A DNA stretch of 6,393 bases, from IMG/VR virus record IMGVR_UViG_2576861133_000006. One strand, written 5' to 3'. The notes beneath the pieces were generated by a model. That model ran no database searches. It saw only the letters and a list, made by a program, of their open reading frames with translations, and was not told the DNA's origin. This stretch comes from a virus (lineage: Duplodnaviria > Heunggongvirae > Uroviricota > Caudoviricetes). The position numbers and the translations under genes were made by a program. Below are positions 1-5,195 of this stretch, piece by piece (positions within the stretch are counted from its first letter, which is position 1; the number at the start of each line of letters is the position of its first letter).

Positions 1-268
1 CCACCCATGCCAGCGCCTTATCACGCTCAATGGCGTTAACCCGGTCGCATTTTTCCTTCGACAACTTCATGCCCGGAACGACAGGTTTGCCATCCACCAG
101 GATGGCACCGCGGCAGATGGTCCAGATACCCGCGCCATCACGGTATGCCGTGGTGTGGTTACCTTCCTTTTCATCCAGAAACTGGTCGAGAATGTCAGGC
201 GCAGGCGCACCAGCGGCAATCAGCGCCAGAACGGCAGCCGACAGGCCGTATCTGATTTTTGCGTTCAT
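1..268 (-). CDS. Phage endolysin, GH24 lysozyme family, with SAR-like N-terminus; 5' partial (first 89 codons, gene continues past window start)
   Basis: Minus-strand translation from ATG at 268..266: MNAKIRYGLSAAVLALIAAGAPAPDILDQFLDEKEGNHTTAYRDGAGIWTICRGAILVDGKPVVPGMKLSKEKCDRVNAIERDKALAWV. The weakly hydrophobic Ala/Gly/Leu-rich N-terminus followed by a lysozyme-like core is the pattern of signal-arrest-release endolysins. An in-frame stop lies 2 codons upstream (277..275), so 268 is the start. No obvious Shine-Dalgarno. Absent from the ORF track only because it runs off the window. Confidence 0.8.
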   Translation of the reverse strand, partial: MNAKIRYGLSAAVLALIAAGAPAPDILDQFLDEKEGNHTTAYRDGAGIWTICRGAILVDGKPVVPGMKLSKEKCDRVNAIERDKALAWV

Positions 269-373: not shown

Positions 374-646
374 ATGGACAATAACACCATTTCTCTACAG
401 GAGTTGCTCGACAGCATTTCCAGGCTTCGGGAAGACGTGAATACCCTTACCGTCGCCTTCTCATATCTGGCATTCTCAATTCCAAGGGAACAGATGCAAT
501 CAACGCTGGCATCAATCCAGTTTGAATCATGCAATCCCAAATGGTCTCAGGAACAACAAGACTCTTTCAGGCGGCTTGCTGTATTACTGGATGAAAAATA
601 TGCTGGTAAAATTACCATTTCGGCGGACTCTTCAGAGAACCCGTAA
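374..646 (+). CDS. Hypothetical protein, 90 aa, antisense to the lysis cassette
   Basis: ORF with ATG start and strong SD (GAGGA, 6-nt spacer). Product MDNNTISLQELLDSISRLREDVNTLTVAFSYLAFSIPREQ... has no recognisable motif. The 3' end overlaps the convergent DUF1327 gene by 35 bp (612-646). Chosen over the minus-strand 68-aa ORF 334..540, which starts with TTG and lacks an SD. Confidence 0.4.
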   Translation: MDNNTISLQELLDSISRLREDVNTLTVAFSYLAFSIPREQMQSTLASIQFESCNPKWSQEQQDSFRRLAVLLDEKYAGKITISADSSENP

Positions 647-1208
647 TTATTCCCGGTAGTTTTCCTCTGTAGGTTATCAACACATCCTGCGCCTCTAAAA
701 TTACGGGGCGCTTTTCCGGCGACTGCTCATCCCCTTCACATAACCCGGCAGCAACATCCAGGAAGACCTGTCTGATGCTCCTTCTGGCTGCTGCCTCATA
801 AAACTCCAGCGCGGCACCTTCAACACGGTCCAGCGAGATGTCCAGGTCAAAAATTTCACCGTCAAAGCGTTTTTTGTCCCGTAACGCTAAAGTTACCGTA
901 ACTTTATTCTCAAAATTGCGGATCCCTTTCACAATCAACTGCGCCTCTAAAATTACGGGGCGCTTTTCCGGCGACTGCTCATCCCCTTCACATAACCCGG
1001 CAGCAACATCCAGGAAGACCTGTCTGATGCTCCTTCTGGCTGCTGCCTCATAAAACTCCAGCGCGGCACCTTCAACACGGTCCAGCGAGATGTCCAGGTC
1101 AAAAATTTCACCGTCAAAGCGTTTTTTGTCCCGTAACGCTAAAGTTACCGTAACTTTATTCTCAAAATTGCGGATCCCTTTCACAATCAGTTCATAGTTT
1201 TGAGTCAT
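612..1208 (-). CDS. DUF1327/YdfR-like lysis-cassette protein carrying an in-frame tandem duplication (198 aa; about 114 aa without the duplication)
   Basis: ATG at 1208..1206 preceded by GGAGA SD, 4 nt after the pinholin stop. The N-terminus MTQNYELIVKGIRNFENKVTVT... resembles, from memory, E. coli Qin prophage YdfR (DUF1327), which likewise lies between holin and lysozyme. Residues 7-90 are repeated as 91-174. Confidence 0.65.
   Translation of the reverse strand: MTQNYELIVKGIRNFENKVTVTLALRDKKRFDGEIFDLDISLDRVEGAALEFYEAAARRSIRQVFLDVAAGLCEGDEQSPEKRPVILEAQLIVKGIRNFENKVTVTLALRDKKRFDGEIFDLDISLDRVEGAALEFYEAAARRSIRQVFLDVAAGLCEGDEQSPEKRPVILEAQDVLITYRGKLPGIITGSLKSPPKW
687..1190. repeat. Near-perfect tandem direct duplication, 2 x 252 bp (687-938 and 939-1190), in frame within the DUF1327 gene
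   Basis: Direct comparison of the two copies: 251 of 252 positions identical. The only difference is 938 (a) versus 1190 (g), a synonymous TTG/CTG Leu change. 252 is a multiple of 3, so the frame is preserved. Confidence 0.95.
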
Positions 1209-1460: not shown

Positions 1461-1493
1461 AATAAAAAAAGCCACCAGTTAAGTACTGATGGC
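1461..1493 (-). terminator. Rho-independent terminator between the esterase gene and the pinholin gene
   Basis: Minus-strand RNA: 8-bp stem GCCAUCAG/CUGGUGGC (one G.U pair), 7-nt loop UACUUAA, then UUUUUUUAUU. Plus-strand coordinates: stem 1471-1478 and 1486-1493, A-tract 1461-1470. Confidence 0.55.
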
Positions 1494-1578
1494 TCTGATA
1501 ACTCATGCAGGCATCTCAGACGACCCACTGACACTACCGGTGAGTTTAACGATACCTTCCATTTGACTGGCTCACTTT

Positions 1579-3450
1579 TTATGATGATGCCGGTGCATTT
1601 ATCTCCAGCACCAGACTTTCTATCTCAACGCCATACGTTGCATTTTTGGTAATATCCGTCAGCGTCAGCGCATTCAGCCCCAGTGTCAGACTGTCTTTTA
1701 TGACCTGGAATGCCGGGCCAGCCACTCCATTCAGTTTCGGAGTAACCGTGGCACTGCCGGCGGTGAACACCAGCTCCAGCGTCTGCCAGTCGTTACTGTA
1801 ATTCCCGAACTCGCCCAACTTTGTGTTTCCTGCTTTCCTGTGATGCATCAGATTCAGTTTGCCGTCTGTGGTCTGGGTGAAGAACGACATCAGGAACGGG
1901 TTACCAGTCCCGGTCATCGCCACGACGTCAGGTAACGCTACATCGGTACACAGATAAATTCCCAGACCGAACTGGTTGTTGGTCAGTGCGCCTGACAGTC
2001 GAAACTTACAGCTCAGTCTGCCACCCCGTGTCAGCAGGGAGACTGCGTCATCCACCGGATGCATCAGGGACCAAGTTTTATTGCTCTGCTTGGTAACCTT
2101 AAACACACCATCTTCCAGCGCAACACTGCCGCCGGTGATGGTCCAGCCCTGCGCAGCAGCCTCTCCGGCTGTCGGCAGCAGGGAGACTGTACGAACGGAT
2201 GTGTCACCATCAGACGGCCCCGATGGAGTGTCGCCGCCGGGCGAGGGTTTGATTTCCGGTGCCTTACCACTAATGAAGGCTAAGGTGCGACCGGCTACGT
2301 TCAGAATAGCAGTTGCCATACGATCGGGAATAATGCCACGACGCGCCCATGAGCTGAAATGCGTCGGGCGATTTGATGATACCCAGTTTTTGTTCGTTCG
2401 GGATGCCGAACCGTAATAACCAGACCCGGCAATATCAGGATCTTCTGACGGGTTGTTTGTCGGTGTATTAACTCCGCTACCATCGGTCATAAAGGGAACA
2501 AAATAAATCTGCTGGGATTCTTTACCTTTATATGCACCATATACCACTTCATATTGCGTACCGTGTTCTTGTTTCCACGCGTATGTCGTGTCGCCACAAA
2601 TCCAGGGGACTGATGCCGGACTTCCACCGTGACACTGCGCCGCCAGCCCGGCAAGGTCAGCACGGAACTGCTGTACCATTGCAAGAAATGCTGCTGGCTG
2701 CTGGGCGTAACTGGCATTCGTCATATCGAATTCCCCCTGCATCCAGCATATCGCCAGCAAAACGTTTTTCGGGTTTTTCTGCAATGCTGCCTTCGTGCGG
2801 AAAAGCAGATCCTGATATAACGGCTTACCCACTCCCCAGCGAGCCGAATCCTGACTGGCCCCCGTGGACTCGCTGAATGTCCCCTCCGTGCCCTGGGTGA
2901 ATGCCGAACCACCACGACAGCATGGTACCAGCAGGATCCCCGCATTATTAGGGATATACGGAAGCAGTTTTTTGGCAATATGTAAGCCCTGTCCGACACA
3001 GCCGTACTGCCCTTTGCTCAGGTCAGCCCGGGGATGGTTAATCGTACTCATATCCTGAACATCATGCAGACAATGGTCAGCAGGAATGATGTCGTTAAAT
3101 ACGCATACTTCACCACCGGGAGTCACTGTGTTACGACGGGCCAGTTGCTTAATGCGCGGATGGGGCGCATCGTATGAATCCGGAAGCGGAAGCCCTTCAC
3201 CGTAAGCCATGGCATTGGATTGCCCGGCCAGTACGATGACGTAGTACCACTCCGGCTCAGTTGCACCACTGACGACCACATCACCTTCTGCTGCAATCGC
3301 CTGCATCAGGGTATAAGGGGTTATGGCCACCGGACTACCAAACGGCTGCCAGCCCTCTTTCAGTTTATGTGTCAGCTTTTCCGCAAGATCTGACGGCGAC
3401 GCCGCCCTGACAACATCATAGTGTTTAAATGCCATGGTTCTTTCCACCAT
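1579..3450 (-). CDS. nanS: Prophage-type sialate O-acetylesterase (NanS-p-like): N-terminal DUF1737-like region, SASA esterase core, C-terminal beta-rich domain
   Basis: 623-aa ORF. N-terminus MAFKHYDVVRAASPSDLAEKLTHKLKEGWQPFGSPVAITPYTLMQ is DUF1737-like. It is followed by VIVLAGQSNAMAYG, a GDSL/SGNH-type GQSN catalytic-serine block typical of sialic-acid-specific acetylesterases. The position upstream of the lysis genes matches NanS-p of EHEC prophages. The start may instead be the ATG at 3435 (MAFKHY...), which has a slightly better upstream purine-rich tract. Confidence 0.75.
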   Translation of the reverse strand: MVERTMAFKHYDVVRAASPSDLAEKLTHKLKEGWQPFGSPVAITPYTLMQAIAAEGDVVVSGATEPEWYYVIVLAGQSNAMAYGEGLPLPDSYDAPHPRIKQLARRNTVTPGGEVCVFNDIIPADHCLHDVQDMSTINHPRADLSKGQYGCVGQGLHIAKKLLPYIPNNAGILLVPCCRGGSAFTQGTEGTFSESTGASQDSARWGVGKPLYQDLLFRTKAALQKNPKNVLLAICWMQGEFDMTNASYAQQPAAFLAMVQQFRADLAGLAAQCHGGSPASVPWICGDTTYAWKQEHGTQYEVVYGAYKGKESQQIYFVPFMTDGSGVNTPTNNPSEDPDIAGSGYYGSASRTNKNWVSSNRPTHFSSWARRGIIPDRMATAILNVAGRTLAFISGKAPEIKPSPGGDTPSGPSDGDTSVRTVSLLPTAGEAAAQGWTITGGSVALEDGVFKVTKQSNKTWSLMHPVDDAVSLLTRGGRLSCKFRLSGALTNNQFGLGIYLCTDVALPDVVAMTGTGNPFLMSFFTQTTDGKLNLMHHRKAGNTKLGEFGNYSNDWQTLELVFTAGSATVTPKLNGVAGPAFQVIKDSLTLGLNALTLTDITKNATYGVEIESLVLEINAPASS

Positions 3451-3695: not shown

Positions 3696-4031
3696 ATGAA
3701 GTGGATTGTGATTGATACAGTTATCCAGCCATCATGCGGAATATCTTTTTCAGTCATATGGAGTAAAATAAAATTAATAATCTGGTATCAATCGGATGCT
3801 TTCTTACCTCCTGAAAGTATATTTACACTGACTCACACAGGCATCATGCTCAATAACAAAGTGCTACCTGTAACCATTTACAACGTAGTACCATTCAATA
3901 AAACATTCTGGAATTTAATCAAAAACAGCCAGGAATGCCCTACAAATACAGATAACGTATTGAATGAATGCTTTAATAACCGTTGCACTCTGCAAATATG
4001 TCCTTATGGACTAAAACAACAAAGTCCATAA
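3696..4031 (+). CDS. Hypothetical protein, 111 aa, AT-rich cargo gene opposite to late transcription
   Basis: ATG with AAGGA SD 6 nt upstream. Very AT-rich coding sequence with six ATA codons. Product [32 protein letters not shown]... has four Cys in the last 31 residues and no recognisable motif. Confidence 0.35.
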
Positions 4032-4478: not shown

Positions 4479-4805
4479 CTACCCCAGATGAGTAATCCGA
4501 AGTTCATCCATACCACAGGTCCTGGCTATTCTGTTGTACTCCTGAACAAGAGTAAATAATTCTGAATTAGCCACCATGAACTCATCGCAAACCCTCTGTA
4601 TAGCATCACTATTCAGAATAATAACGTCTCTTCCCGAAAGACGATCAGGAGTACAGAACAAAACTGTCAAACGGCTGAAGGCCTTTGCTCGTGCTGCATT
4701 GACTATATCAATACGCTGCCTAAGGATGAAACACCCCGACGCCTCATCAATATTCACTCTACCCACACCATATGAATGATAAATATTTAATGCTGAAAAA
4801 ACCAT
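4479..4805 (-). CDS. Hypothetical protein, 108 aa from ATG at 4805 (118 aa if the GTG at 4835 is used)
   Basis: Minus-strand ORF in the cargo slot. Product MVFSALNIYHSYGVGRVNIDEASGCFILRQRIDIVNAARAKAFSRLTVLFCTPDRLSGRDVIILNSDAIQRVCDEFMVANSELFTLVQEYNRIARTCGMDELRITHLG. It contains 3 AGA, 3 AGG and 3 ATA codons. No convincing SD before either start and no recognised family. Confidence 0.4.
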   Translation of the reverse strand: MVFSALNIYHSYGVGRVNIDEASGCFILRQRIDIVNAARAKAFSRLTVLFCTPDRLSGRDVIILNSDAIQRVCDEFMVANSELFTLVQEYNRIARTCGMDELRITHLG

Positions 4806-4942
4806 TAGACCGTATAACAAACACTCAATCAACACTTAACAGAACTTTTATTTTTGACAAACATATAATATTTTCAACAATATCCTGAGCCAGGTATATT
4901 TCAGTATAAGGCTCTGCCGGAAGGAATCTGGAAGAATGAATA

Positions 4943-5019
4943 TGGCGCGCTGTACTGGATTCGAACCAGTGACCGATTGCTTAGAAGGCAATTGCTCTGT
5001 CCGGCTGAGCTAACAACGC
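4943..5019 (-). tRNA. tRNA-Arg, anticodon UCU, 77 nt (phage argO/argU-like)
   Basis: Minus-strand sequence GCGTTGTTAGCTCAGCCGGACAGAGCAATTGCCTTCTAAGCAATCGGTCACTGGTTCGAATCCAGTACAGCGCGCCA. Acceptor stem GCGTTGT/ACAGCGC (one G.U), D stem GCTC/GAGC, anticodon stem ATTGC/GCAAT with loop CTTCTAA, T arm ACTGG-TTCGAAT-CCAGT, encoded CCA. Confidence 0.9.
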
Positions 5020-5119: not shown

Positions 5120-5195
5120 TGGTGGCCCTTGCTGGATTTGAACCAGCGACCTGGCGATTATGAGTCGCTCGCTCTCACCACTGAGCTAAAGGGCC
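5120..5195 (-). tRNA. tRNA with CAU anticodon, 76 nt; most likely tRNA-Ile2 (lysidine type, ileX/ileZ-like) rather than tRNA-Met
   Basis: Minus-strand sequence GGCCCTTTAGCTCAGTGGTGAGAGCGAGCGACTCATAATCGCCAGGTCGCTGGTTCAAATCCAGCAAGGGCCACCA. Perfect acceptor stem GGCCCTT/AAGGGCC, anticodon loop CTCATAA, T arm GCTGG-TTCAAAT-CCAGC, encoded CCA. Very close to E. coli ileX as I recall it. Confidence 0.9.

Follow-up and report, generated by a model that had tools for sequence, protein, structure and literature searches.

The ydfR-family gene of the window (the whole 6,393-nt stretch of tailed-phage DNA analysed here, IMG/VR record IMGVR_UViG_2576861133_000006) contains one segment twice. The question raised by this locus is whether the doubling belongs to the prophage itself or to the reconstruction of its sequence.

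Anatomy of the repeat and of the doubled protein

Tandem Repeats Finder detected a single tandem array in the window (687-1189, period 252, 2.0 copies, 100% matches), in line with the in-frame tandem duplication of 252-nt period proposed in the sequence-only reading. The exact repeat, in which 687-937 equals 939-1189, measured 251 nt at 100% identity by a repeat search and by direct comparison, and a repeat of this length in 6.4 kb cannot have arisen by chance. When the copies were compared as 252-nt units (687-938 and 939-1190), they differed only by an A at 938 and a G at 1190, which on the coding (minus) strand gives TTG and CTG, both codons for leucine. The description of copies identical except for one synonymous change was therefore accurate. 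The A at 938 matched neither of the native neighbours (C at 686, G at 1190), and the anatomy is consequently that of a 251-nt segment X, one base and X again, rather than that of a 252-nt unit with a later random substitution. No further perfect duplication of the same kind was present in the 6.4-kb window, and no Ns either.

On the coding strand, the native 5' end of the segment reads TAT GAA CTG ATT GTG, the native 3' end GAG GCG CAG GAT GTG TTG ATA, and the junction GAG GCG CAG TTG ATT GTG. The run of identity at the repeat offset (251 nt) was shorter than the period (252 nt), where microhomology would give a run at least as long as the period. In the simplest description, the end points of the 687-1189 repeat thus show no microhomology, and one untemplated base is found instead. 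The junction can also be described in two steps, as the TTGAT of the coding-strand junction recurs 6 nt downstream of the native 3' breakpoint; in this description a 258-nt duplication via the 4-nt microhomology TGAT is combined with the loss of the 6 nt GATGTG. The chance of the TTGAT coincidence near the native 3' breakpoint was estimated at 0.02-0.04.

Each copy also harbours a 19-nt near-palindrome, TAAAGTTACCGTAACTTTA (888-906 and 1140-1158), identified by an inverted-repeat search. As part of the coding sequence, it specifies the conserved KVTVTL strand. This palindrome was considered as a driver of the breakpoints and rejected, the nearest duplication end point being 32 nt away.

The 198-aa product of the ORF consists largely of two 84-residue units, residues 7-90 being repeated as residues 91-174, as the sequence-only reading had described. 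The protein matched the Pfam family DUF1327 (PF07041; E 1e-80, 266.5 bits against a cut-off of 25) and phrog_406 (E 7e-116), in two stretches in each case, and the PHROG families matched are of unknown function. The normal ydfR allele encodes 114 aa (WP_000193278.1), with one DUF1327 module of three antiparallel strands and a helix, followed by a disordered tail. AlphaFold2 predicted this beta-beta-beta-alpha module twice in the 198-aa protein, with a pLDDT of about 75-85 in the modules, a low-confidence linker between them (residues 74-88) and a pTM of 0.61, compared with 0.54 for the single-copy protein. All family-invariant residues are present in the first module. The claim that the domain itself is doubled holds for the two 84-residue units but only in part for their content, as in the alignment the second module has lost the invariant Tyr5 (replaced by Ala) and the nearly invariant Glu6 (replaced by Gln) at the start of its first strand.

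Table 1. Coordinates of the lysis-region features and repeat elements of the window, and of the perfect duplications in the draft loci (numbered within each locus)
Feature	Positions	Strand	Evidence or remarks
Lysozyme, N-terminal 89 codons, cut by window end	2..268	-	Pfam PF00959; translation MNAKIRYGLSAAVLALIAAGAPAP...
Convergent ORF, 90 aa, unknown function	374..646	+	phrog_2411 E 1e-58; WP_000369850.1
ydfR-family (DUF1327) ORF, 198 aa	612..1208	-	ORF list, Pfam PF07041, phrog_406
Repeat copy X, gene-end side	687..937	-	With base 938, residues 91-174, second module
Junction base	938	-	A on plus strand, T on coding strand; codon TTG, Leu91
Repeat copy X, gene-start side	939..1189	-	With base 1190, residues 7-90, first beta-beta-beta-alpha module and linker
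Class II (phage 21 S-type) holin, 71 aa	1213..1428	-	Pfam PF04971 E 2e-32, phrog_9876, RefSeq
Draft duplications, locus L002	3574-4130, 6844-7337		
Draft duplications, locus L003	691-1290, 1514-1902, 2350-2950, 5037-5594		
Draft duplications, locus L004	1365-1835, 2351-2950, 5031-5482		
Draft duplication, locus L005	1371-1701		

The locus represents the late/lysis region of a lambdoid E. coli prophage of the ST131 type. The order on the minus strand is DNA methylase, two tRNAs, NanS-p esterase, class II holin, ydfR and lysozyme (Table 1). Within the lysis cassette, ydfR lies directly after the holin, with 4 nt between the holin stop codon and the ydfR ATG, and before the lysozyme; the same order was found in loci L002-L006. 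The assignment to the DUF1327 family (PF07041), at a site between holin (PF04971) and endolysin (PF00959), was accordingly upheld. The N-terminus of the lysozyme is hydrophobic and SAR-like, and the full lysozyme has 177 aa in the NZ_LS992192 locus. The convergent 90-aa ORF is antisense within the cassette, between ydfR and the lysozyme, and had no Pfam match. Its 3' end overlaps the 3' end of ydfR by 35 nt, and the duplication leaves it untouched. Other ydfR alleles run on the ydfR strand through the space of this ORF, resulting in products of 176-296 aa.

The region further upstream comprises the NanS-p type SASA esterase, an IraM-like gene, two tRNAs and the DNA methylase. A strong terminator-like hairpin followed by a T-run is present between nanS-p and the holin (1468-1496, minus strand), and the late transcript presumably passes it under Q antitermination. 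One tRNA (4943-5019, minus strand) is a tRNA-Arg (TCT). The other (5120-5195, minus strand) was called Met (CAT) by ARAGORN, while its RefSeq equivalent is a tRNA-Ile, like the ileZ tRNA of Stx phages. The IraM-like anti-adapter gene (3696-4031, plus strand) is located between the tRNAs and nanS-p, and it is between these same elements that the stx genes of Stx phages are found. An ORF of 118 aa (4479-4835, minus strand) matched phrog_2873 over the whole profile (E 1e-69). The RefSeq annotation of NZ_LS992192 has no CDS at the corresponding site (about 7189-7687 of locus L001), and the ORF is probably a real phage gene missed by annotation.

The best complete-genome match to the window was E. 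coli TO217 (NZ_LS992192), together with many O25b:H4-ST131 genomes. With the repeat collapsed, the window differed from TO217 by 34 substitutions and a 3-nt indel, all within nanS-p (1579-3450, minus strand). These 37 differing positions were confined to a patch of 390 nt (1838-2227), and the rest of the window was identical. The whole nanS-p esterase gene was 99.7% identical to that of genomes bearing a different ydfR allele. The patch may be either a recombination mosaic or, less likely, an assembly mix of paralogues.

Searches for the junction and for two-module relatives

Deletion of 687-938 from the window restored a 114-aa gene exactly, identical to the single-copy gene of NZ_LS992192. 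This gene of TO217 has the same neighbours as the gene in the window (holin WP_000284510, the convergent 90-aa ORF and the lysozyme) but encodes a single module, whereas the window protein has 84 extra residues and the TTG junction codon. The 741-nt region around the repeat was 100% identical in many complete genomes, in which it spans 489 nt and is therefore single-copy. The region as such is multi-copy within genomes, with 9,897 places in 4,368 complete E. coli genomes and as many as 13 in a single one.

A 50-mer with the junction at its midpoint was used as query in order to assess the presence of the junction elsewhere; its 25-nt halves are too short for megablast seeds, so that only true junctions can match. 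No match was obtained among 5,426 complete E. coli genomes, while the control 50-mer from the native 5' boundary matched 2,017 of the same genomes. The junction 50-mer was likewise without a match among the INPHARED phages. A junction 30-mer had no match in IMG/VR, and none in the GTDB representative genomes or the JGI metagenomes, also when any base was allowed at the odd position. The exact 198-aa protein was absent from about 15 billion proteins and 153 billion gene positions. A ydfR paralogue with TTG at Leu7 was considered as the source of the filler A, and this was rejected for alleles in this context; a version of the native 50-mer carrying A instead of G1190 had no match in complete E. 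coli genomes.

The DUF1327 family is small and essentially restricted to Escherichia and Shigella prophages. Its members share a conserved module, about 75 residues long, and have mosaic C-terminal tails, in products of 104 to 296 aa, and the residues invariant in the module alignment are Tyr5, Val21, Gly47, Leu50, Tyr53, Glu54, Ala57 and Leu72. The 198-aa protein departs from this one-module architecture, with two modules, the second of which is without Tyr5. YdfR of K-12 (Qin prophage, UniProt P76160, 103 aa) is likewise a member of this Pfam family and shares the N-terminal module of about 75 residues; P0131, a close relative of K-12 YdfR, aligned over residues 1-75. K-12 YdfR differs from the window protein in having one module and a C-terminal tail unlike that of the window allele, in keeping with the mosaic 3' ends of the family.

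Of 265 relatives obtained by homology search, the 120 best-scoring were compared, and among these only three proteins (P0001, P0004 and P0109) spanned both units. When 1.84 billion cluster representatives were searched exhaustively with phmmer, 62 clusters and no genuine two-module protein were obtained; the draft-assembly cases aside, two modules were seen in no other family member examined. A repetitive protein of 3,128 aa (P0163) gave six weak matches (33% identity, E 1.6e-8) to query residues 92-142. Its score was probably inflated by its own internal repeats and does not reflect homology.

The three doubled proteins are 207 aa (P0001), 196 aa (P0004) and 169 aa (P0109) in length, contain three different internal duplications, and come from four DDBJ drafts (GCA_005381005.1, GCA_005381265.1, GCA_005380525.1 and GCA_003113695.1). 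They share with the window a perfect internal two-copy duplication of ydfR in the same holin-ydfR-lysozyme context, but differ from it in the allele (MKKKYELVVKGINNYPDK...), in the end points and in the periods (279, 246 and 165 nt). The draft contigs, unlike the window, carry extra duplications in neighbouring genes. The 4-9 kb draft loci contained perfect two-copy duplications, ten in all and 165-300 nt in period (Table 1), which were located in ydfR, nanS-p, TerB-like genes and the HNH/terminase region, with Ns scattered in two of the loci. Three of the ten (loci L002-L004) consisted of X, one mismatching base and X (278+C, 194+T and 235+G nt), each filler being unlike both native neighbours; locus L002 presents the same anatomy as the window.

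One 279-nt ydfR duplication was common to two assemblies, the junction base being C in one and T in the other. The sharing of duplications among the draft assemblies was patchy, which is at odds with vertical inheritance. Five draft junctions, searched together, had no match in complete E. coli genomes; the native allele of the draft ydfR is present in 948 of these genomes. No paper was found in the literature on the draft accessions BDIF, BDKM, BDJO and BDKZ. The Platanus_B paper covers gap closing and misassemblies in repeat-rich E. coli and has nothing specific on tandem duplications. We conclude that the doubled YdfR proteins of the drafts are reconstruction errors in a repeat-rich prophage region. 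As the errors affect ydfR, the same gene in the same context is a demonstrated site for such an error. The draft duplications also seed spurious proteins in databases, namely YdfR proteins of 169-207 aa and a 717-aa NanS-p.

Origin of the doubled segment

The sequence-only reading had offered either a very recent duplication or an assembly artefact. Both still stand, and the evidence leans to the artefact, owing to the unique junction, the exact collapse and the look-alikes in drafts. We consider it most likely, at somewhat better than even odds, that the doubled ydfR segment arose during reconstruction of the sequence. From the features of the junction, we infer that two pieces sharing the 251-nt stretch may have been placed one after the other rather than overlapped, and that a one-base gap at 938 may have been filled with an arbitrary base. 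Such an error would be expected in prophage segments occurring several times per genome, and in complete genomes this sequence is indeed present in several places per genome. The real gene would then be an ordinary single-copy ydfR and the 198-aa protein would not exist. This origin is consistent with the exact return of a common allele on collapse, with the zero divergence between the copies and with a junction that is unique to the window in every collection searched. It is also consistent with an X-base-X anatomy common to the window and error-ridden draft contigs. There are exactly two copies with 0 differences in 251 nt, and the unit would fit within one short read, MiSeq reads commonly being 251 nt long. 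When tandem duplications form in E. coli independently of RecA, the join is normally at short direct repeats, and the lack of microhomology at the end points together with one untemplated base therefore also argues for an artefact. In addition, a mutation following a true duplication would have needed to strike the junction position, for which there is about 1 chance in 252. Some observations fit a reconstruction error less well. A de Bruijn graph alone cannot invent a junction, so that a scaffolding or gap-filling step must be assumed, and the single duplication in 6.4 kb without Ns contrasts with the worst of the draft loci. The period is in frame, for which an artefact has a 1 in 3 chance, and the odd base is explained by no paralogous allele in complete genomes. 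Both modules were predicted by AlphaFold2 to be folded, which would make the product not implausible. The junction base can moreover be read as templated via TTGAT, 6 nt beyond the native 3' breakpoint, although this coincidence fits a complex template switch and a similarity-guided computational join equally well.

A real, private and very recent in-frame tandem duplication in the prophage of one isolate is the less favoured explanation, to which we would still give roughly one chance in three. It would have arisen by illegitimate recombination or by template switching during replication, a possible route being the 258-nt duplication via TGAT followed by, or combined with, the loss of GATGTG. 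Such copies would be too young to have diverged, and nothing points to selection. The novel junction string requires some physical or computational joining event, and it equals native sequence 6 nt away. The in-frame period, the predicted folding of both modules, and the single repeat in an otherwise clean window also speak for a true duplication. Its absence from draft-based collections carries little weight, as short-read assemblies tend to collapse tandem repeats. The junction was, however, also missing from the 5,426 complete genomes, with about 9,900 copies of the region, and from all other collections searched; natural two-module DUF1327 proteins were found neither among the best 120 of 265 homologues nor in the 62 clusters, and the only look-alikes are in error-ridden drafts. 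The simplest description leaves one untemplated base and no microhomology, while the two-step description needs two coincident events, and the second module is without the invariant Tyr5. The third explanation, that the doubled gene is an established two-domain DUF1327 variant under selection or that ydfR is a hotspot of recurrent and favoured in-frame internal duplication, appears extremely improbable and is close to refuted already. It draws on four different internal ydfR duplications (in the window, P0001, P0004 and P0109), all of which are in frame, but this frame is an ascertainment effect because the proteins came from a protein search. The copies were 100% identical in DNA in every case, so none of the duplications is old, and no diverged two-module member was found among the 1.84 billion representatives. 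Unrelated neighbouring genes in the drafts carry the same kind of duplication, the window junction and the five draft junctions were absent from complete genomes, and the patchy pattern among the drafts misfits vertical inheritance. Either way, the finding comes down to no real feature or to a private duplication with zero divergence.

If the duplication is an artefact, its value is practical, since perfect two-copy repeats of read length in multi-copy prophage segments would form a recognisable class of error. The signature for a quick filter would be X, an odd base and X, occurring in one assembly only and collapsing exactly to a common allele.

YdfR and the host RNA decay machinery

The description of ydfR as a gene of unknown function is slightly dated, as an interaction of K-12 YdfR with the catalytic half of RNase E (residues 1-597) has been reported from two-hybrid and pull-down experiments (2026; PMC13232886). 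In the same study, YdfR residues 1-72 were sufficient for the interaction, RNA co-purified with K-12 YdfR, and few transcripts were altered by YdfR overproduction (PMC13232886). By analogy with K-12 YdfR, the best available hypothesis for the family, and by extension for the window allele, is that of a prophage late protein which contacts the host RNA decay machinery. Other phages encode modulators of RNase E, such as T7 gp0.7, T4 Srd and phiKZ Dip, with which the comparison is one of function only. RNase E is a homotetramer and, as residues 1-72 suffice for binding, a doubled protein could bind two protomers at once. That the duplication is real, and its product the first natural YdfR to carry two modules for RNase E binding on a single chain, is a long shot. 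If true, the doubled YdfR could modulate host RNA decay more strongly, or in an altered way, late in prophage development. A real duplication would be confined to one strain and to a non-essential prophage gene, with zero divergence between the copies, and would be of interest only as a natural two-module protein with which the recently reported contact between YdfR and RNase E could be probed.
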